From an uncultured virus (IMG/VR IMGVR_UViG_3300034178_000025) (taxonomy: Duplodnaviria > Heunggongvirae > Uroviricota > Caudoviricetes): a stretch of DNA of 64,000 bases. Within the stretch, counting starts at the first letter, position 1, and the number at the start of each line of letters is the position of its first letter. Made by a program: the position numbers and the translations under genes. The stretch is taken from IMG/VR virus record IMGVR_UViG_3300034178_000025. One strand, 5' to 3'. The notes below the pieces were generated by a model, which was not told where the DNA came from, ran no database searches, and was given only the letters and a program-made list of their open reading frames with translations. This document shows positions 621-24,018 of this stretch, piece after piece.

Positions 621-820
621 CTCTGGCCACTAGGACAGAATTGCTCAAACTTCACGATGCTGCTACGCTGGCTCGTGACGCTGCTCACCGGGCCTACCAG
701 GTGGCGCTGGCCAATCGCCAGAAAGATGGCGACACCGAGCACGCCTACGAGGCACTGCTGGCCGCCAACCGTGTGCGGGACAGCATTTACCGACTGGTCC
801 TAGCAACAACTGGCTCCTAG
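617..820 (+). CDS. hypothetical helical protein
   Basis: 67-aa ORF, ATGA coupling, GAGGA upstream. Confidence 0.65.
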   Translation: MTLATRTELLKLHDAATLARDAAHRAYQVALANRQKDGDTEHAYEALLAANRVRDSIYRLVLATTGS

Positions 821-846
821 ACATCTTCCTACTCATGTGCTAGACT
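818..846 (+). promoter_or_regulatory. promoter TAGACA-17-TAGACT (TG-extended -10)
   Basis: Hexamers at 818-823 and 841-846; -10 lies inside the inverted repeat CTACTCATGT...ACATGAGTAG. Confidence 0.55.
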
Positions 847-925
847 TAGTGCTAGAACATGAGTAGGCGGGGCATCTAGGCCCAAGAAAGCTAGCACTAG
901 CACCTGACACCTGGGACGGTGTAGT

Positions 926-1126
926 ATGAGTGATCTGCCGGTCTTAACGGAACTGTGCGCCGTCAGTGACGCTGGTGCACTGTGCGGCACTCCGACCAAC
1001 GAGATCTGGGATGCCGATGACATGGTGGACGAGGTCAATGCTGTCCTACGGGCGGCTGGCTCGCCCCTGTTCATGACGGGGCCAGCAATCTGCGAAAAGC
1101 ACATGTGGATGATCCCCGAGTTCTAG
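926..1126 (+). CDS. early hypothetical protein
   Basis: 66-aa ORF preceded by the repeated motif. Confidence 0.7.
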   Translation: MSDLPVLTELCAVSDAGALCGTPTNEIWDADDMVDEVNAVLRAAGSPLFMTGPAICEKHMWMIPEF

Positions 1127-1141
1127 ATCTGTGGAAGCTGG

Positions 1142-1170
1142 TTGCGCATCATGCTAGCATCTGCTAGACT
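1142..1170 (+). promoter_or_regulatory. promoter TTGCGC-17-TAGACT (TG-extended -10)
   Basis: Hexamers at 1142-1147 and 1165-1170, on opposite arms of the inverted repeat 1140-1181. Confidence 0.55.
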
Positions 1171-1225
1171 GGTGCGTAACCGGGGCAACACAGCCCTAGT
1201 CAGCACTCACCTGGGACGGTGAAAA

Positions 1226-1933
1226 ATGGACGCGAAAAACATCACCTACTTACCATCTGTGCCAGTCCGGTACAGCTATGCTCAGCCGAGCATGTCGCGT
1301 CGTGGTGGAGTCAGACTTCACCCGGTTGCCGACGGCAGGCTGAACATGGAGGCCAGTCAGCAGTACCTGAGGACCCGTGACTTCGCTGGTAACAAACTGC
1401 GCGACCATGTTAACCCGACCTCGGGCATGTTCACCCACTGCACCAGTCTGATCGAGAGCTCGCCACTGAACCCAGTCGGCACTGCTCCCGAAGACATGAA
1501 GTCGGGCGTGTCTGGTGCTGACAATGCAGCAACTAGATTGCTCCCTAAAAAGACAGTACATACGCCCGCCGGTCGGGTGTATCTGGATGAAGCTGGTCAA
1601 GTGATCCGCACGACCGATATGGGGGACTCCCCCGTAATCGCTCGACCCCGGATTGCCGACCCGTCCACCACTACCAAACCCTCTAAAGGGAGGCGTAGCG
1701 TGTCCGCTAGGGCACCCAAACGGGCCGTCCCGCAAACCCCGGGCGGAACCGGCCCATCCGGTCGCATCACTGATGCCGACGTCGAGGCCTTCGTTCGGGC
1801 TGTGGCCGAGATGCACGGGCGCACGGTTAGCATCGTGACTCCCAACATGCTCCGGGACGGCCGGGAAGCGCTCAAAGCCCTGCGCAAGCAGGCCGAGAAA
1901 GTGCTAGCCAGGCGTACTAGTCGTGGCAAGTGA
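1226..1933 (+). CDS. early hypothetical protein with an E3-binding-like GTGxxGRIxxxDV motif
   Basis: 235-aa ORF preceded by the repeated motif; contains GTGPSGRITDADV. Confidence 0.7.
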   Translation: MDAKNITYLPSVPVRYSYAQPSMSRRGGVRLHPVADGRLNMEASQQYLRTRDFAGNKLRDHVNPTSGMFTHCTSLIESSPLNPVGTAPEDMKSGVSGADNAATRLLPKKTVHTPAGRVYLDEAGQVIRTTDMGDSPVIARPRIADPSTTTKPSKGRRSVSARAPKRAVPQTPGGTGPSGRITDADVEAFVRAVAEMHGRTVSIVTPNMLRDGREALKALRKQAEKVLARRTSRGK

Positions 1934-2098
1934 TGGTACGGTGGTTACCTTTATCTACACGTACCAATTCACCAGCGACTGGTGCTGGTCGGCAATGGCT
2001 GGCGTACTGGCCTCGGTCGCAGTTATCGGTAACCTGCTGGTGGCCGAGCTGGCAAGCCGAAGTCGGAGGAGAAATGCTAGAACGTGAGCAACTGGGCC

Positions 2099-2127
2099 TT
2101 GACAATAGTAGATGGTCCGATTAGACT
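2099..2127 (+). promoter_or_regulatory. near-consensus promoter TTGACA-17-TAGACT
   Basis: Hexamers at 2099-2104 and 2122-2127, just upstream of tRNA-like element A. Confidence 0.75.
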
Positions 2128-2165
2128 GGACCTAGCTAGAAGAACTACCCTAGCTGGAAAGCTAG

Positions 2166-2252
2166 GCGAGATTGCAGGCTAGCCATCCGAAGCTGTGTCG
2201 CCAGAGATGCGCACGGTACGGACGGAGGGGGGTTCGAATCCCCCAATCTCAC
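2166..2252 (+). ncRNA. tRNA-like element A (acceptor stem and T arm; long hairpin in place of an anticodon arm)
   Basis: GAGATT/AATCTC stem abutting GGGGG-TTCGAAT-CCCCC; inner hairpin TCCG..GCTGTG...CACGGT..CGGA; no canonical D arm or 7-nt anticodon loop. Confidence 0.55.
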
Positions 2253-2293
2253 GTAGTAGTAAGTAACCGCTAGTACACCTGGGACGGTGGAAC

Positions 2294-2707
2294 ATGGGAC
2301 ACAGAGGACACGTAGGCAAAACTCTACTCACACCACCAACTGATCTGGCTCGTGCACTGGTCGGCCTCGGCTGTCCGTTGCAGGTAAACGGCGCCGTCTC
2401 GTTGGAGGAGAGCGACCACCTGAACTGCCCCCCGGGCAGCAAGTGGATGCTCGCGGAACGCTGGGTGGATGAGTCCAGGCATGTTGGCGGAGTTGTCAGG
2501 CTGATCGGTGTCACAACGCCGGCTAGCTGGCCGAGTCAGGACGAGCCTGTCACGCACTACCACCTGCACCTGTTTGCCAGGGCGTTCATGCTCGGCCACG
2601 CGTACCCGCTGGGATTCGGACAGGCACACTGCCTGTGCCCGACCGGCGAGTCTGACGTCAAGTGGTACATGCACGAGTATCTGCCCCAACGATGGGACAT
2701 GAGGTAA
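2294..2707 (+). CDS. early hypothetical protein
   Basis: 137-aa ORF preceded by the repeated motif. Confidence 0.65.
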   Translation: MGHRGHVGKTLLTPPTDLARALVGLGCPLQVNGAVSLEESDHLNCPPGSKWMLAERWVDESRHVGGVVRLIGVTTPASWPSQDEPVTHYHLHLFARAFMLGHAYPLGFGQAHCLCPTGESDVKWYMHEYLPQRWDMR

Positions 2708-2899
2708 TCATCATGCACCGTCGAAAGAGGCAGATTAGGCTGGCGAGCTGGATGTTCAGCCTGCTACGCAGCTACCGGCACCAGGCTAGCCACCGTAGCA
2801 ACCCTCACCAGCGGATCCCCGCTCCCAGGTTGTTGCTACAGCTGGAACGTTAGCCGATAGTCCAGCCCTGAAAATCTAGCAAAAACTAGTGGCTAGGGG

Positions 2900-2929
2900 T
2901 TGCGGCGCAGGGGTTAACCCTGCTACAGT
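2900..2929 (+). promoter_or_regulatory. promoter TTGCGG-18-TACAGT with a palindrome in the spacer
   Basis: GCAGGG-GTTAA-CCCTGC overlaps the spacer and extended -10; upstream of the 393-aa gene. Confidence 0.6.
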
Positions 2930-3004
2930 CAACACAGACAACACGGGACGCACATACAAACGTTACCCGGAACTGAACGGACGCGACCACAGGAGGGCGC
3001 AGCA

Positions 3005-4186
3005 ATGAGTGACACCGAACTGGACTTCGACATCGACACGGACGAGTCGGGTGTCGAGGTCGAGCAGGTCAACGATGGTGACATCCCGGGTACCGGCGAT
3101 GTCGAGGTCGAGCTGACCGAGATCGACGACGCCAGCCTGGCGGAGGCGGTCGCCGCAGCCAGCACCGAACCGGTCGAGCTGACCGACGAGCAGAAGGCTG
3201 AGGCAGAGGCGAAGGCTAAGGCAGACGCCGAAGCGGCCGAGTTGGTCGCAACGGAGAAGCTGGACGCCTTCAAGGCAGCCACCGAGGCAGTGCTGGCCAA
3301 CGACGAGCGTACCGACTGGGTGGCCGAGCTGCCCGTTGCCGTGACCGAACCGGTCACCAGCGCGTACAGCGAGCTGGTCGGCTCCAAGGGCAAGGCAGCA
3401 GGCAAGCAGTACCTGGTCGACCGCATGCAGGCCAAGATGATCGAGGGTGCAACCAACCCTGCCTCGTTCACCGATGCCCGCGTGTACATGCTGCTCAACA
3501 GCGCCTTGAAGGACGCCAAGAGCAAGCGTGAGACGGTCGCCAAGCCCAAGGTCGACCCGACTACTGCCTTCGTCGAGCGTGCGGCGGCCCTGATGCTGGC
3601 CGTCAACCTGCTCACCGTCCCGTCGGACGTCGAGGAGGACTGGGCGGACAAGACCGAGAAGCTGGTCAACACGCTGTCCACCGACGTCGCGGCCTACCAC
3701 GCCTGGCAGGCCGAGCTGGTTCGGGTGGCCAAGCACAACGAGGCCAACCCGCCCGCCGAAGGCGAGAAGCCGGTCGAGGTCGAGACGCCCGACATCAGCG
3801 CGGTCGTGCTGGCGGCGGCGAAGATCGCGGCAGGTCGTGCAGTCGGCAGCGCCGGTCGCAAGCCCAGCCAGTCCAGCAAGGAGGGTAGCGCTGGCAGCAC
3901 CAGCGTCCCCCGCGTCAGCACGGCAGGCTCGGGTCACCGAGGCGACATCGCGAAGCACATCCGCGAGGCGATGAACACGGTCGGCATCGGCGAGTTCATG
4001 TCCGTCGCGGACATCGCCAAGGTGGAGACCTCGGAGTACGGAACCGGCGAGGCCCCGCCGCCCAGCCAGGGTGCGATCTCGGCCCGGCTGTTCCCTCGGG
4101 ACGGCAAGGCATGCACGCTGGACTTCGTCCGCCCGGAGGGTCCCGACCAGGGCCAGCCCAAGAAGGGTGCGGTTCGCACTGCCTGA
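3005..4186 (+). CDS. probably abundant protein, acidic N-terminus, possible C-terminal winged-helix
   Basis: AGGAGG RBS, strong GC3 bias, C-terminal MSVADIAK...PSQGAISARL. Confidence 0.85.
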   Translation: MSDTELDFDIDTDESGVEVEQVNDGDIPGTGDVEVELTEIDDASLAEAVAAASTEPVELTDEQKAEAEAKAKADAEAAELVATEKLDAFKAATEAVLANDERTDWVAELPVAVTEPVTSAYSELVGSKGKAAGKQYLVDRMQAKMIEGATNPASFTDARVYMLLNSALKDAKSKRETVAKPKVDPTTAFVERAAALMLAVNLLTVPSDVEEDWADKTEKLVNTLSTDVAAYHAWQAELVRVAKHNEANPPAEGEKPVEVETPDISAVVLAAAKIAAGRAVGSAGRKPSQSSKEGSAGSTSVPRVSTAGSGHRGDIAKHIREAMNTVGIGEFMSVADIAKVETSEYGTGEAPPPSQGAISARLFPRDGKACTLDFVRPEGPDQGQPKKGAVRTA

Positions 4187-4226
4187 GCAGGGCCTGATCG
4201 GTCCCACCGGCACCATCAGCTAGACC

Positions 4227-4276
4227 CCCGACCTGCCGTGGATACGTCTTCGTGCGAAATGAAGCGGCAGGTCGGG
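4227..4276 (+). terminator. GC-rich stem-loop (terminator or processing site)
   Basis: CCCGACCTGCCG...CGGCAGGTCGGG between the gene end and tRNA-like element B. Confidence 0.5.
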
Positions 4277-4289
4277 CTGTAATACACAT

Positions 4290-4415
4290 GGACACGTAGC
4301 TCATCGGCAGAGCAACCCCGTAAACTCCGGGTCAGATACTAGTAGTCTGATTCAGCGAGTCCGGACTCGCAGTGGGAGCTGGGAAGGTATGCTGGTTCAA
4401 ATCCAGCCGTGTCCC
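4290..4415 (+). ncRNA. tRNA-like element B with a branched insert replacing the anticodon loop
   Basis: Perfect acceptor stem GGACACG/CGTGTCC, TA, D arm GCTC-ATCGGCA-GAGC, T arm GCTGG-TTCAAAT-CCAGC; 77 nt between D and T arms, including hairpins TCAGA..TCTGA and GCGAGT-CCGG-ACTCGC. Confidence 0.8.
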
Positions 4416-4554
4416 CGAGGCCAGCCAGTCCGTTTGCGGAGATGGGTTCACAGAGAAGGTCTCTAAGGGAACGACAGTGATGTCCGACCTGTGCATGGGA
4501 ACTCACTCAAAAGGAAACGTGGTAGGGGGTCAGATTATCCCTGGCTACCCTACT

Positions 4555-4639
4555 GTGGGTAATAGCATTACGGCTTAATGCGCCCTGGATAAACCCGTGA
4601 GGGTAAAGGGAGATCGAGGTTCGAATCCTCGTACCTGCG
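4555..4639 (+). ncRNA. tRNA-like element C with a GNRA-capped hairpin in the anticodon position
   Basis: GTGGGTA/TACCTGC, D arm GCATTA-CGGCT-TAATGC, stem CCCT/AGGG enclosing ACCC-GTGA-GGGT, T arm CGAGG-TTCGAAT-CCTCG. Confidence 0.75.
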
Positions 4640-5092
4640 CTCGCAATCTACACGTAGTCGAGGACAGGTGATAGACATGCGATGTTGACAGCCCCTCAGG
4701 GGCCAGCGTAAGGGGACTCGCATCCCCGACAATAAGCAGGGTAGTGCCGTGCCAGCTTAGGGCAGGTACGGGCAAGGCGCACCCTTTCAGTTACCTGGGG
4801 GTGTTAGTGACACAGTTACTCAGTTTGAGAACCCAGCAAAACTACTATACAACTGAACATGCGTGCAGCACCACGGGCGGCCTGGGACGGGCTATTCTCT
4901 GCGGGGTTGACACCCGTTCCAGGTTGTGGTTAGGTAGTACAGCAACACCGCACTGCGGTAATACAGCGCACCGGGAAGGGTGAGCTTTGGATAGCTGGTT
5001 CATCATCAGCATGTGCATCATGGTGCCAGCTATTGTCGTGTTGGCCATCTGTGCATTCATGCCGATGCCGCACAGGCGAAGGGACAGTGACA

Positions 5093-5377
5093 ATGACTGA
5101 CAGCCCCGATGTGAAGAAGTTCGTGCGTGTCGAGCGTTCGCTCCGGTTCGTTCTCGTTGTCGATCTGGATTCGTACCAGGTCGACGGTCGACAGATGACC
5201 GAAACCGAGATCCGTGACTACGAGCACGCAAAGAACGAGGACAAGGCTGCCTCGGTGCAGGACATGTACGAGGTCGTTGGCTTTGCCGATGATGACACCG
5301 TCGAGACAACGACACGGGTCACCTTCGAGGAGACCATTGTGCTGGGAGGCACCAGTGAGCCCGAGTCGGGAGCGTAA
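5093..5377 (+). CDS. hypothetical acidic protein
   Basis: ATG at 5093 with GAAGGGA upstream, in frame with ORF 5033-5377. Confidence 0.65.
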   Translation: MTDSPDVKKFVRVERSLRFVLVVDLDSYQVDGRQMTETEIRDYEHAKNEDKAASVQDMYEVVGFADDDTVETTTRVTFEETIVLGGTSEPESGA

Positions 5378-5926: not shown

Positions 5927-6145
5927 ATGGGCAAGGCTTACGTCCTGCTCGGCGTGCTCATGACGCACGCTCCCAACGGTCGGGCACAGGCGAAGTGTGC
6001 CGAGATCTACAACAAGCTGATCTACGATGGATTCTCTCAGGTGGGAGCTGAGAGAATCCTAGCCCGGATGCTGGTCAACGGTCTCGACCACGATGACTGG
6101 CCGTGGATTCCGGACTACACGGTGCCACTGAACACTCTCAGCTAG
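5927..6145 (+). CDS. hypothetical protein
   Basis: GGAGGT RBS within CACCTGGAGGT, a variant of the repeated motif. Confidence 0.65.
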   Translation: MGKAYVLLGVLMTHAPNGRAQAKCAEIYNKLIYDGFSQVGAERILARMLVNGLDHDDWPWIPDYTVPLNTLS

Positions 6146-6327
6146 AACAAACACAGATCAAACCCGAAGTTCCCTTCCGAGTTGGTATGTACTGTGCTTC
6201 GGCACTACCGTACTAAGCCTTCCGAGTTGGGTCGAGGTCGAGATATTGTCCTCCTGTTCAGACCTCGTTAAACAAAATGTATAGGTACGGGACCGCTCCC
6301 GGGTACAAGTTATGCCGGGGGCGTCAA

Positions 6328-6399
6328 GGGGATCTAGCTCAACGGTAGAGCACTGGCCCTGCAAGCCAGCGGTTAGGGGTTCGAGTCCCCTGGTCTCCA
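6328..6399 (+). tRNA. tRNA-Ala(TGC)
   Basis: Full cloverleaf: GGGGATC/GGTCTCC with G3:U70, A73, D arm GCTC/GAGC, CTGGC-CCTGCAA-GCCAG, AGGGG-TTCGAGT-CCCCT; C at position 33; CCA not encoded. Confidence 0.93.
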
Positions 6400-6683
6400 C
6401 GCACGCCAGCGAGTACCTGATATCTGCTGTTATCAGCATGTAAAGATATTCGGTACTGTGTTTCGAGGGTGCACTAATGAGAAGATAGGGACTGTCGATG
6501 ATCATGTCGATAAGGCCGGTTCAGTGGAGGCGCCAGTGAGATACCACCCAGAGGTTAGCAACTGAATCCAGTAGGTGGGAGCCGGTGAAGCTGTGCACCT
6601 GTAACTCTCGACATGTATCGCGTGGTGAAGGCGACAGAAGGTAGGGTAGAGGGTGATCCCTATCAAATGAAGTTGCAATGCAA

Positions 6684-6790
6684 CACTGACCAGGACAACG
6701 TGCTGGCTGACGGGCCAGCCCAATCCAACTGTACGTCTGTTGGTGGCAGATAGTCCCGGGCACTGGGTTTGAATCCCAGTCTGGTCAGTG
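6684..6790 (+). ncRNA. tRNA-like element E (extended acceptor stem, T-like arm)
   Basis: CACTGACCAG/CTGGTCAGTG abutting ACTGGG-TTTGAAT-CCCAGT; inner arms GCTGGC-TGACGG-GCCAGC and CCAAC-9nt-GTTGG. Confidence 0.6.
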
Positions 6791-7137
6791 TGCAGCACAG
6801 CAAGGCATGGCATGGCCTTATCTCCAATAAAGGGGCAGCGAGTCGGATTAGAGACCCGACTGGATGATCCGCTAATCAGGGTCACCAGGGAAGGCGACTG
6901 CCCCTCCGATAGCAAACTGGACAGTGTCAACCAGTGAGTAGCTATTGACACACAGAGATCCACATGATTGAATGTTGCAGTCACGCTAGCTAGTGCATTG
7001 GCTGCATCGAGTCGCAAACTGTACGTGCAGGGCGGGCATATCACGTCCCAGGGTGCCCGCCTGGCTTTCGCAGCAGCAACTCGGTGCAGTCAATGGACTG
7101 TCTAGAGACTGGTCCATCGCGCAGTTAGTCACCACGG

Positions 7138-8831
7138 ATGCAACAAAGAGAGCCCGGTCGTCTGTACCCTCCCGTACACCGGCCGGGCTTTCTCTTGGAA
7201 GGGTACGGTGCGGAGTTGGGCAACGAGTGGAAAGACGAGAACGAGAAGGACTTCCCTCGCTGGTTGCTGTGGTTGTGCATCATCTTCGTGATCGGCGTGG
7301 TGATTGCCTGGAAGGTCGGGTGGCTCCACTGAAGCTGGACGCATTCGAGCGGTTCACCCTCAACGACTTCATCGCACCGATGGAGGGTTACAAGTACGGC
7401 GCAGTGCACGTAGTGTGTACTGAATGCTACGCCAGGGTGGACGGCAACCAGGAGACTCCCCTGTTCGGGGATGACGAGTACTGGTACTACTGGGTGCCCG
7501 ATGCCATGGCCAGCCAGCTATTCGTCTGGATGTACAGCCACCTGAACAAGTGGCACAACAAGGAAGGGAAGTTGAGTGGGTCTGCACAACAAGCGTGACG
7601 ACTTCAAACTCCTCGCGCTGGCCGTCGGGATCGTGGTCGTGCTGGTTGCGGTCTACATCGGGGTGGTGTACTGGGGTGGGTAAATCATCTGCAAAGAAGT
7701 CCAACGAGAATCCTGACCGGACGTTCTTCAAGATGGTGGCAGGCGCCTGGCTGATGTTCGGCACGGCGGGTGCACTCATCCTGTTGTTCGTCCATGTCCG
7801 GGGCTAGTCATGCGTGGGGCTGACAACGTAGGGCTATCGCTGTTCTGGGTAGCCCTGCTTGTCTTCGGATGTATCGCTATCTTCCTGTTGTGTGGATAGC
7901 CCATCGACCCATCCAAGGGTAGCAAGAAAGGAAGCACGTGCTCCACTACCTGTCCACCCTGCCCTACCGAACCAACATCCCGGTGCCTAACCCGAAGGCG
8001 CCCAACTCGAAGGATGTTGTCAACAAGGGCAACGACCTGTCCGACTGGCTTGCCCACCGAGGCGGGACATTCTGGGCGATCGTCGTGATCCTGGTCGTTG
8101 CCTTGGTTGTCACCTCCCTCCTAAAACGACCCTTCGTCAGGGGGATCGTGATCGGTGGAATCATCCTCGCGATCATCTTCGCAGTACTGAATGGAGGGAG
8201 GTGAACATGAAAAGTTGGTTCTCGATTGCCGTACTCTGGGTGATTGTCATCGCCGCAGGTATCTGGTGGGCCTCCGGCAAGTAGAAGGGACGGCATGAAG
8301 AGGGAACACCACAGAGGCAGGCACGCGTATAACCAGGGAGGTAACTTCGTGAAGAAGAAACCACACGATGGTGCTGCGCTTGCAATCTCTGTAGCAATCA
8401 CTGTAGTACTCATCTTCGTCTTGACCGCCGTACTGGCAGGGTCTTGACCTAACAACCCCCGACAAGCAGGAGTGCAATGGAGTACGGAGTCTGGATACTC
8501 GGGTTGGCGTTCGTCATCCTGGGTCTGCTCGGTACCTGGTATAACGCAGAGCAAAACAAGTACGGCACGGCAGGTGTGTTCCTCTGCCTGGTCGTCATCG
8601 GCGCCGCAATGCTGGTGTTCAGTTGGTTGGCGTGGGCGAGCAGTGTCTGACGGCGGCGGACCCGCGATGCCTGACGGCCCAGTCAATCCGCTCTGGTTCA
8701 TCTTCATGATTGCCATGCTGTGCATCGGTGCGCTGGCGCCCAGTAGATGGATCAAGATTGCCTGCGCGGTAGTAATCGTGCTGACAATCTTTACAATGCT
8801 CGGGTTCCTTCCCCCCGGAGGAATTAGATAG
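7138..8831 (+). other. cluster of small membrane-protein genes (7138-7332, 7576-7683, 7676-7807, 7810-7899, 7938-8204, 8207-8284, 8295-8447, 8477-8650, 8667-8831)
   Basis: Tightly packed 25-88 aa ORFs, several with clear RBSs, each with 1-2 hydrophobic helices. Confidence 0.65.
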
Positions 8832-19673: not shown

Positions 19674-20197
19674 TGGCTGCATGGACACCTGGATTCCGTC
19701 GCCCCCCGCCCGGACAGAAGTCCAGAGTCGGACAGCACGTGATCGCGATGCTCAACCTGCATCGGCAGAAAGTGGGCATCTACAAGAACCCGTCGCTGGC
19801 ATCCGAGTCGGACGTCGACGACGATACGCCTGTCGAGCCCGGCGACAATATCGTCATCGCCTTCGATAGTGGCTACAAGAAATTCGCAGTCAATCTGTCA
19901 GCCATGACTACCGAGGAGCTGCTCATGTGGCAGCAGGCGATAGGTATCGCCATCGAGTGGGCTGCACCCATCGTCCAAGAGCGGGATCGAGTAGCAAGGG
20001 AGGCTGCCGACAATGGCAACGATATCTTTTACCGCCGCCACCGAGCGGCTCCGAAACTTTCTGTCTTCCAAAGGCAGAGCCGACCACACGCTGAAGGCGT
20101 ACCTGACGGACCTAAAGATGTTCTGGCAGGAGATGGATCTGGACCTGCTGAATCTGGAGGACCTGGAGGATCTGGCGGCCCTGTGGCTGAACACTAA
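19673..20197 (+). CDS. hypothetical protein overlapping the recombinase 5' end
   Basis: TAATG coupling; 174 aa. Confidence 0.6.
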   Translation: MAAWTPGFRRPPPGQKSRVGQHVIAMLNLHRQKVGIYKNPSLASESDVDDDTPVEPGDNIVIAFDSGYKKFAVNLSAMTTEELLMWQQAIGIAIEWAAPIVQERDRVAREAADNGNDIFYRRHRAAPKLSVFQRQSRPHAEGVPDGPKDVLAGDGSGPAESGGPGGSGGPVAEH

Positions 20198-20843
20198 CCG
20201 ACGGGTCGTTGCCCCCAAGACAACGGGGCGTAGGCTGACGGCGATGAAGAATCTGGGGCTTGCCTACAAGCAGGCGGTACTCATCGACTATTCGCCGCCG
20301 ACTGCCGCGCAACCCAAACCGCACCCTCTCCCCGGGGGTTTTGCGGACCTACAGAAACTTCTCGACTCCTGCCACCAAGAAGAACACCGAACCGTGATAG
20401 CCCTCACCGGGCTGGTCGGCGCCCGCATCTCGGAAGCTCGGGAGATTCAGGCGTCAAGCTTCAACATGCACGACAAGACCGTGAGGATCTGGGGTAAGGG
20501 CGACAAAGAAAGAGTTGTCCCGGTCAGTGATATGGCCTGGCGAATCTTGATGCCGACCCTTGTCGATCGCCTCACGACTGGTCATGGTGATGTCCCACTC
20601 GTCAGCATGGGAGACCGCACTGCCCGCGAACTGATCACCCGGCTAGGCGTGCGAGCTCGCATCAATAGATCCATCAGCTCGCACGACCTGCGTGCCACCT
20701 TTGCGACTGAGGCTTACCGTCGCACCAAGGACATTCGAGCAGTCCAGGTATTGCTCGGCCACGCCAGTAGCAAGCAGACCGAGCTTTACATCCTCGTCGA
20801 GGATGACGCGATGCGGGCCGCAGCAAACTTCATGGAGACGTAA
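20013..20843 (+). CDS. tyrosine recombinase/integrase (XerC/D-like)
   Basis: GARISE, GKGDK, HDLR, LGH and TELY catalytic set; GGAGG RBS. Confidence 0.93.
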   Translation: MATISFTAATERLRNFLSSKGRADHTLKAYLTDLKMFWQEMDLDLLNLEDLEDLAALWLNTNRRVVAPKTTGRRLTAMKNLGLAYKQAVLIDYSPPTAAQPKPHPLPGGFADLQKLLDSCHQEEHRTVIALTGLVGARISEAREIQASSFNMHDKTVRIWGKGDKERVVPVSDMAWRILMPTLVDRLTTGHGDVPLVSMGDRTARELITRLGVRARINRSISSHDLRATFATEAYRRTKDIRAVQVLLGHASSKQTELYILVEDDAMRAAANFMET

Positions 20844-23256: not shown

Positions 23257-24018
23257 ATGAACAAGATCAAGAAGATTCTGGTCAGTGCGGGCTCGGCGCT
23301 CGCACTGATCGCGTCGACCCTGGTGGTCGGCGGTACGCCCGCCCAGGCGGCACTGACGTACCTCTACGCCCAGGGAGCGGAGACTAAGACCGAAACGGGC
23401 GCGGCTGTTCTCATCACGGTGGCGTCGCCGACTGTGACGGCGGGCGACTTCCACTCACTCGCTCAGATGGCCGTCTTCTCGTCCGACCTGCAGCAGGTCG
23501 TGGAGGTCGGCTGGTCGGTCGACCCTGCTACATTCAGCGACAACAACCCCCACCTCTTCGCCACGCGGTGGACCAACGGCGCGTTCGGCGGGTACTCGGA
23601 CACGAGCTGGGTGGACTACGCACCGAACGCTGTAAACAAGGGCGCCAGCCTTGCGCTGGATGTCGGCTCGCTGAAGGCATTCCAGATCTCGTTCGACGGA
23701 TCCAACAACATCTGGGTCTACTACAACGGTGTAGCAGTCGGACACTTCCCGGCGTCTGACTGGACGTCTCCGACCTTCACGACTGGCAGTAAGTGGAAGT
23801 TCTGGGGGGAGGTGGCGGCCAACGTCGCCAGCCCGACAACCCTGATGGGTACTGGTACTTGTTCGGCGGCGGCGGGAGCGGCGAAGTTCTCCAGCGTTAC
23901 GTACGCTGACTCCTCAACTGGAAACCTGTCGTTGTCGGCGACGGACACCAGCAAGTACACAACTACGGCCATCTCCGCCAAGTCGTTCTACTTCGGCGGC
24001 GACGGCTCCTGCCCGTAG
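23257..24018 (+). CDS. secreted neprosin-family (glutamic prolyl) peptidase
   Basis: Signal peptide ending AQA; VEVGWSVDP, IWVYYNG..VGHFP, FWGEV and MGTG motifs with both putative catalytic Glu. Confidence 0.82.
   Translation: MNKIKKILVSAGSALALIASTLVVGGTPAQAALTYLYAQGAETKTETGAAVLITVASPTVTAGDFHSLAQMAVFSSDLQQVVEVGWSVDPATFSDNNPHLFATRWTNGAFGGYSDTSWVDYAPNAVNKGASLALDVGSLKAFQISFDGSNNIWVYYNGVAVGHFPASDWTSPTFTTGSKWKFWGEVAANVASPTTLMGTGTCSAAAGAAKFSSVTYADSSTGNLSLSATDTSKYTTTAISAKSFYFGGDGSCP

Follow-up and report, generated by a model that had tools for sequence, protein, structure and literature searches.

A modular non-coding RNA cassette with tRNA-shaped RNAs behind a conserved gene of an actinobacteriophage-like genome

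The stretch of DNA analysed here (the window) comprises 64 kb out of a phage of about 73 kb, and DNA near-identical to it is contained in three sediment sequencing runs, one of which may be its source. Pfam searches on its 70 open reading frames (ORFs) revealed a portal protein, a capsid, a tail tube, a tape measure, an amidase, a helicase and an AAA/VWA pair, and the terminase was identified via PHROGs. By sequence, the phage behind the window appears to be an actinobacteriophage related to Gordonia, Rhodococcus and Tsukamurella phages. The gene at 3005–4186 on the plus strand, referred to here as the anchor gene, encodes a protein of 393 amino acids that belongs to phrog_6708, a family without an assigned function. 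It is located upstream of the AAA/VWA genes, an order that is kept among the cultured-phage relatives. Among cultured phages the anchor protein has 97 matches, and since these are confined to Gordonia, Tsukamurella and Rhodococcus phages the host would be an actinobacterium. The protein has an acidic and disordered N-terminus, a helical middle part and a small α/β domain at its C-terminus. A fold search with its predicted model (pLDDT 66, pTM 0.33) gave no match at E ≤ 0.001, and an RNA-binding role can therefore not be claimed for it. Bacterial genomes gave just two weak matches to the anchor protein, and the window carries a tyrosine recombinase gene (PF00589) at 20013–20843. A further phage gene, at 23257–24018, combines a Neprosin domain (PF03080, E = 1.8e-15) with a signal-like N-terminal stretch.

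Behind the anchor gene lies an island of 796 nt (4190–4985) which had been described in a preliminary description as about 800 nt of stacked hairpins with no credible gene. Both its existence and its non-coding nature hold up, but the island consists of separate modules in a row rather than of uniform hairpins. All eight of the stems named earlier are present at the coordinates given for them. Conservation is lacking over approximately a quarter of the island, and the picture of stacked hairpins overlooks the nature of the conserved units, namely tRNA-shaped RNAs and one motif linked to the 3′ side of a tRNA. The ACAG/CTGT stem exists in the window and its pair is not retained in three homologues. 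The structured region also ends slightly earlier than had been proposed, as the last 12 nt (4974–4985) represent a ribosome-binding site and not a non-coding RNA; the purine run at 4974–4983 (plus strand), which precedes the next small ORF (4987–5100), is conserved in the window and in the homologous genomes L037 and G001. Alignment with relatives, which had been suggested as a check, matched 383 of the 796 nt and left 413 nt unmatched in six relatives. The homologous loci were gathered through the anchor protein; one of them, L036, is identical to the window and hence not independent. That the island is non-coding, structured and in part conserved is supported by this comparison, by a disrupted reading frame and by the matches of the individual modules.

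The folding energy by itself is weak evidence, and it is conservation that carries the case. Comparison with shuffled sequence, also among the earlier suggestions, gave a modest excess: the minimum free energy (MFE) of the whole island has a z-score of −2.01, with one of 20 shuffles equally good. Perfect 5-bp stems number 54 compared with 34.4 in shuffles (1/200 as high). In 120-nt windows the island folds no better than coding controls (mean z of −0.90 over 12 windows, versus −0.86 in the upstream gene and −1.30 in the tape-measure gene). Two T arms occur on the plus strand within the 796 nt, an arrangement found in none of 5000 shuffles, 60 of which have one; in the window, five of the six T-arm motifs lie on the plus strand between 2.2 and 6.8 kb.

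The possibility that ORF 4372–4578 or ORF 4744–4983 encodes a small protein is scarcely credible, and to this extent the absence of a gene holds as previously claimed. Their codon log-odds per codon are +0.10 and −0.14, respectively (−0.20 for ORF 4575–4775 on the minus strand), whereas the clearest neighbouring genes reach +0.32 to +0.38. The slightly positive value of ORF 4372 is shared by some real early ORFs, which score just about +0.1, but its frame is broken in 3/3 homologues, by stops in two and a frameshift in the third, though the DNA is near-invariant. Moreover, neither plus-strand ORF has a match in Pfam or PHROG, and ORF 4372 runs across three of the RNA modules (B, D and C) described below.

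Compared by blastn with 50,697 phage records, the island gave nothing but T-arm words. Exact-pattern scans for modules B and D gave only G001 in viral contigs, with five further matches being unrelated, and no match in genome contigs. Hairpin, twister and hatchet ribozymes, group I cores, T-box stem I and CRISPR repeats were dropped as candidates on judgement by eye and for want of Rfam matches. A literature search brought up no account of such RNAs from actinophages, although motif lists in supplements could still contain them.

The first module, A (4227–4276, plus strand), is a GC-rich hairpin of 12 bp that encloses a further stem-loop (z = −3.68 for the hairpin 4227/4265). In L037 all 12 pairs are kept, with one two-sided and one one-sided change. 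Module B (4290–4415, plus strand) is a tRNA-shaped RNA and the sole match of the island in the Rfam search (cmscan) that had been proposed as a check: it scores 39.3 bits (E = 4.3e-6) against the tRNA family, with an anticodon arm that cannot be aligned. It possesses a 7-bp acceptor stem, a 4-bp D stem, a 5-bp T stem and a canonical T loop, so that its acceptor, D arm and T arm are those of a decoding tRNA. In place of a 5-bp anticodon stem with a 7-nt loop, U33 and purine 37, module B has a branched 58-nt insert consisting of a stem, a junction and two hairpins, one of which is a perfect 16-bp palindrome (4355–4370). The distance from the D arm to the T arm is 77 nt, compared with 23 nt in the tRNA-Ala of the phage. 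Homologues are present in L037 (94% over 4209–4462) and in the complete phage G001/L096 (78% over 4290–4467), and a search with model R1 across 58 sources revealed no fourth. In the alignment of the homologues, 62 of the 63 cells of the frame and the second hairpin are paired; the second hairpin is invariant in the three genomes, and the discriminator varies (C, A, A). A likeness of the palindrome to RNase P RNA was dropped, as the shared word occurs in just three of 22 actinobacterial RNase P RNAs. An antisense alignment of B with RNase P RNA, matched by 0/200 shuffles among 32 comparisons, was not reproduced with a second RNase P RNA.

When introns are allowed, ARAGORN assigns module B to a tRNA-Pro(GGG) interrupted by a 51-nt intron, both in the window (as L036) and in L037, and a loop in which position 33 is U and position 37 a purine is constructible. 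That B is an intron-containing tRNA which is spliced into a working one is nevertheless highly improbable. The reading fails because the orthologue in G001 implies another amino acid, Ser(GGA), and cannot give the canonical loop, U33 resulting from none of eight splice registers. The variable region of B, at 7–8 nt, also counts against it, as does the lack of an RtcB ligase in 5/5 related genomes and among the 70 window ORFs. A group I intron would require a much longer insert.

Module C (4555–4639, plus strand) is a second tRNA-shaped RNA, which ARAGORN reports as tRNA-??? (4555–4640, no readable anticodon). Its cloverleaf is both the MFE and the centroid structure (z = −1.71). As in module B, the acceptor, D and T arms agree with those of a decoding tRNA, whereas the anticodon stem, 7-nt loop, U33 and purine 37 do not: an internal loop lengthens the anticodon arm, which ends in a hairpin with a GNRA-type tetraloop. 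No homologue of C was found among the loci fetched. The module is spanned by the contig of a close relative in sequencing run X5, which retains 4327–4641 and 4863 onwards and in which the segment between is replaced. The replaced segment corresponds to a variable, hairpin-rich and lineage-specific spacer (4641–4860, plus strand) which holds several of the stems noticed earlier and is not conserved: from 4641 to about 4863 the relative has 189 other nucleotides instead, and six relatives have no match. The spacer folds with an MFE z of −2.3 (4/200 shuffles as good), a value for a region picked post hoc, and z-scores of its stems are −1.12 (4641–4682), −1.37 (4691–4727) and −2.12 (4738–4785). 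Near its end, a short A/C-rich single-stranded motif (4849–4858) precedes the next structured module; the motif recurs in front of structured modules at L039:2249, L058:6035, L059:957 and L098:5877.

Module E (4870–4930, plus strand) is a long bulged hairpin (4881/4913; z = −3.44, 0/200 shuffles) with homologues in L037 and G001. Across the three genomes 89% of the cells are paired and three pairs show two-sided change, but 88 of 500 shuffles reach as high, and the covariation is not above the shuffle control. A −35-like hexamer at 4907 opens the 3′ arm and is conserved in all three. This hexamer, together with the perfect palindromes of 14–24 bp in B of the three genomes, would suit a reading in which parts of the island act as DNA, the palindromes binding protein and E serving as promoter and operator for the genes from 4987. 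We regard this as very unlikely, and it could cover module E at most: no −10 box lies 16–19 nt from the hexamer in any of the three genomes, the stems contain G–U pairs and one-sided changes, the T loops are strand-specific and palindromes of at least 12 bp number 20 across the window. Four early genes share a start-associated repeat that stands 5–6 nt upstream of their ATG (208–222, 906–920, 1206–1220 and 2274–2288); the core of this repeat recurs as the 5′ arm of module E at 4881.

Module D (4419–4510, plus strand) is a conserved motif located directly behind the tRNA-shaped module B. It consists of a 37-nt head and a variable interior, which ranges from short to three hairpins across genomes, with a predicted closing helix at 4443–4449/4499–4505. 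Homologues are present in L037, G001 and L039, and the overall length varies from 92 to 164 nt. The head is identical in the window, L037 and G001 and lacks one base in L039, whereas identity between genomes is 73–78% over the final 300 nt of the anchor gene. In all four genomes that have D, it starts 3, 3, 3 or 5 nt past the discriminator of a tRNA-shaped RNA, which in L039 is not of the B type. The fold of D itself is less clear: its folding is no better than that of shuffles (z = +0.71; −0.27 for 4440–4510), and the probability of the closing helix in the four genomes is 0.8, 0.5, 0.13 and 0.08. RNAalifold proposes 18 pairs, none with two-sided change, in a fold that competes with the closing helix; as the paired columns are invariant, covariation does not prove a structure. 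Module D matches no Rfam family and no ribozyme (none at E ≤ 10). Several candidate identities were considered and rejected. The position 3′ of a tRNA is that of a theta (HDV-like) ribozyme, but the nested double pseudoknot (P1, P3, L3, P1.1) is lacking, and our own HDV-fold descriptor, used without a positive control, gave no match in the four D regions. With RNase P RNA, local alignments did not exceed those of shuffles, a 22-sequence profile, from which genomes marked as unpublished had been omitted, gave no match and RF00010 was absent from the Rfam search.

The island is not the only place in the window where tRNA-type elements occur. A tRNA-shaped element with its own promoter-like site (2099–2127) is present at 2167–2252 and is conserved in L037. 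The only canonical tRNA, tRNA-Ala(UGC), is encoded at 6328–6400 and also occurs in L006/G001, L037, L038, L039, L041 and L063. A fourth tRNA-shaped element, at 6686–6788, has an 8-bp acceptor stem and altered D and anticodon arms. All three lie on the plus strand, as does the island, and within 2.2 kb of it. The latter two form part of a second non-coding island (6145–7210), which holds a further conserved RNA at approximately 6993–7105, preceded by a promoter-like site and also found in G001, L037, L038 and L063. Among the closest loci with enough DNA, tRNA-Ala(UGC) is kept in 7/7 and no other true tRNA was seen. Two further elements are absent from the window: a structured motif just upstream of tRNA-Ala (L038:2370–2420, L039:2525–2600 and L063:1720–1790) and a 31-nt element with one copy in each island of L037 (6755–6785 and 8504–8534).

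The slot downstream of the anchor gene was compared by scanning 700 nt for the T-arm motif in the window and 47 hand-picked loci, three of which were dropped as they offered less than 400 nt; of the roughly 100 loci fetched, those that were duplicates or weak, partial matches had been set aside beforehand. The motif is present downstream in 16 of 45 loci, as opposed to 0/42 in the 700 nt upstream; for these counts the search expression had been loosened at one position in the light of the phage Hollow, and the match in L048 (one of the 16) is weak. The motif occurs in all seven of the closest loci with enough DNA; as 29 of the 45 loci lack it, the cassette is dispensable for the lineage. What fills the slot differs. 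Distant relatives carry canonical tRNAs, including Gly and Met (L058, L098 and L099); tRNA frames with inserts are found in the window, L037, G001, L038, L063 and the Rhodococcus phage ReqiDocB7 (L003:8901–9030), and reduced acceptor-plus-T forms in Hollow (L005:3312–3352), Woes (L152:1535–1615), L041 and L099. In four of 31 loci scanned the slot holds a pistol ribozyme, namely at L004:8795–8875 (the Tsukamurella phage TIN2), L012:6046–6116, L074:935–1005 and L076:368–432, and in some relatives it holds hairpins only. These ribozymes begin about 15 to 100 nt past the anchor stop codon (15 nt in TIN2). They are followed by 300–400 nt of ORF-poor structured sequence; in the window, the pistol family (RF02679) has no match anywhere. 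The elements of Woes, Hollow, ReqiDocB7 and TIN2 are unannotated in their records. In L099, at least seven copies of a 40–50-nt acceptor-plus-T mini-element stand amid small early genes (696–4760) and are possibly a set of RNase P processing sites.

What is kept is indicated by three related tRNA frames from the slot (G001, L038 and L063), which form a sister family. All 63 frame cells pair and eight of the 21 pairs are changed on both sides, while the anticodon 'loop' has 8, 11 or 49 nt and both the 1–72 pair and the discriminator differ. A pattern for this family otherwise returned two chance matches. Because the frame pairs while the loop, the 1–72 pair and the discriminator vary, selection appears to keep the shape and not the decoding or charging identity, and the variation of identity positions between homologues would argue against a single synthetase. 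The inserts of the tRNA frames terminate in closed tetraloops or palindromic hairpins. With just three to four homologues per module, the covariation is not statistically strong. The canonical tRNAs in the slot of distant relatives, the changing content between genomes and the unconserved segment 4641–4860 could also be explained by decaying tRNA genes and chance hairpins, i.e. by functionless relics of an older tRNA cluster. This explanation is unlikely and already weakened, as the 37-nt head of D is invariant next to coding DNA of 73–78% identity, two-sided changes keep the helices and the insertions are folded rather than random.

A sigma-70-type promoter-like site (−35, 18 nt, −10) at 2900–2929 (plus strand), upstream of the anchor gene, probably drives the island as well and is the proposed start of read-through. 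Such a site is present in 11 of 14 other loci scanned; two Gordonia-phage loci have none and one has no upstream DNA. On the plus strand of the island itself there is neither a promoter-like site nor a U-tailed terminator; actinobacterial terminators may be without a U tail. In relatives, at least in TIN2, read-through follows from the position of the pistol ribozyme just past the anchor stop codon. The proposal in the preliminary description of a polycistronic precursor read through from the 3005–4186 gene thus gains indirect support from the promoter placement, the lack of an internal promoter or terminator and the pistol ribozymes. That relatives can have a true tRNA, a tRNA-shaped RNA or a pistol ribozyme in one and the same slot further supports read-through and processing. 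Since the phage does not encode the CCA end even of its true tRNA, maturation by the host is required in any case. RNase P, RNase Z and the CCA-adding enzyme recognize the acceptor stem, the T arm and the elbow.

The island is non-coding, modular and conserved, its tRNA frames are devoid of an anticodon loop and its slot is common to tRNAs and the pistol ribozyme. Our best reading of these features, to which we assign a probability of roughly 0.55, is that the tRNA-shaped RNAs are natural 'tRNA scaffolds' that are excised by host tRNA-maturation enzymes, stabilized and made to bear an RNA cargo. The island would constitute the 3′-terminal part of the anchor transcript and form a cassette of non-coding RNAs, in which B and C would retain the acceptor stem, D arm and T arm for RNase P, 3′-maturing nucleases and the CCA-adding enzyme, and would bear a swappable folded insert in place of the anticodon loop. 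Host maturation would cut the precursor at B and C, both of which would become nuclease-resistant, stable carriers of their inserts, and would release the companions A, D and E with defined ends, D being bounded by the 3′ cut of B and the 5′ cut of C. From this architecture we infer transcription, processing by host enzymes and stability. The products would not decode; they may serve as abundant early RNA ligands for host factors in takeover or counter-defence, acting through the inserts and D. By analogy, their job is most likely to be on host factors early in infection, and their targets are a guess on our part. The free variation of the inserts between genomes counts against the scaffold reading and would also fit decay.

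The same features could be read the other way round, with the tRNA frame as the active part: B and C would be decoys that soak up defence enzymes acting on the acceptor end or the elbow (toxSAS pyrophosphorylases, MenT nucleotidyltransferases or tRNA nucleases), and the inserts would merely remove a cleavable anticodon loop. The conserved top half, the closed hairpins that replace the anticodon loop and the existence of minimal acceptor-plus-T forms are in keeping with this. Acceptor-end toxins are described, Mycobacterium included (in parts of PMC11559606 and PMC11541572), and phage tRNAs are discussed as decoy or supplement in a section of PMC13096335. We nevertheless consider decoys rather unlikely, since FaRel2, as far as the source describes it, selects on acceptor-stem identity, whereas acceptor identity varies in these RNAs, and the second hairpin of B, which a mere cap would not need, is invariant in three genomes; D and the pistol ribozymes would also be left unexplained. 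A more speculative and unlikely extension of the scaffold reading concerns module D, which might be an uncatalogued catalytic or processing RNA that frees the 3′ ends of tRNA-shaped RNAs, a counterpart of theta ribozymes with a different fold. The slot would then be a self-processing cassette in which tRNA scaffolds, the pistol ribozyme and D interchange to release cargo from an early mRNA.

These observations bear on a long-standing class of RNAs: in T4 and T5, stable RNAs of tRNA-like form continue to be annotated without a function. The lineage studied here provides a natural comparison series in one fixed slot, comprising a true tRNA, a frame with a swappable insert, an acceptor-plus-T minihelix, a pistol ribozyme and plain hairpins. 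Cultured carriers (the Gordonia phages Woes and Hollow, the Rhodococcus phage ReqiDocB7 and the Tsukamurella phage TIN2) make the purpose of tRNA mimics testable, and module D, a sharply conserved RNA motif without a family, is cheap to assay for self-cleavage.

Among known systems, the island RNAs resemble T5 RNA1/RNA2 and T4 species 1 by architecture and not by sequence homology. In the T5 record (NC_005859), RNA1 and RNA2 are annotated as 'tRNA-like stable RNA with unknown functions', with the companion RNAs I, III, IV, 2H and X. As in RNA1 (144 nt, with a 40-nt insert according to ARAGORN), acceptor, D and T arms are combined with an anticodon arm that has taken up a large folded insert, and in both phages tRNA-shaped RNAs are interleaved with non-tRNA structured RNAs in a tRNA region. 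There is no sequence likeness beyond the T arm, and T5 has 25 annotated tRNAs around its RNAs, whereas in the window mimics outnumber the single true tRNA by 4 to 1. Further differences from T5 are that CCA is not encoded, that the host is probably actinobacterial and that the slot is interchangeable with a pistol ribozyme. The T4 species 1 and 2 RNAs (rnaC and rnaD) are likewise comparable, and rnaC ends in a T arm and an acceptor-like strand. According to PMC2330249, the T4 tRNA-region RNAs, species 1 and 2 included, are cut from one precursor; PMC9697503, in its relevant passage, lists species 1 and 2 as still without known function. Unlike the island RNAs, with which they share no significant sequence match, those of T4 are late RNAs and lie in a cluster together with eight real tRNAs. 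Applied to T4 and T5, model R1 scores their true tRNAs alone and no stable RNA.

The design of B and C is also that of an engineered tRNA scaffold in which the acceptor, T and D arms are kept and the anticodon stem-loop is the insertion site, and which, as an excerpt of PMC3753655 states, is processed and protected by the host in E. coli. That scaffold is artificial and made for E. coli, whereas B and C are natural, and their inserts would be the cargo. The position of D directly 3′ of a tRNA-shaped RNA recalls the theta (HDV-like) ribozymes behind phage tRNAs outlined in PMC10879173, but no HDV-like fold and no Rfam ribozyme match was found in D. GOLLD and ROOL, as summarized in PMC12286853, are phage non-coding RNAs of similar length near tRNA genes; they were rejected as identities, as there is no Rfam match and the island modules are gained and lost singly rather than forming one large fold. 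Y RNA (YrlA) was rejected too, with no Rfam match on the island or its homologues and TROVE absent from 5/5 related genomes and from the 70 window ORFs. The irregular tRNA polycistrons and allo-tRNAs, in the part of PMC5389517 that treats them, offer odd tRNA-like polycistrons, some possibly non-translating; the acceptor branch of B and C is of the 7/5 type and both lack an anticodon loop, in contrast to allo-tRNAs, which decode and have an 8/4 or 9/3 branch. Compared with all of these, the island is new as an actinophage variant of the phage tRNA-like stable RNAs, with an uncatalogued motif, D, and with tRNA frames and a pistol ribozyme as alternative occupants of one slot.
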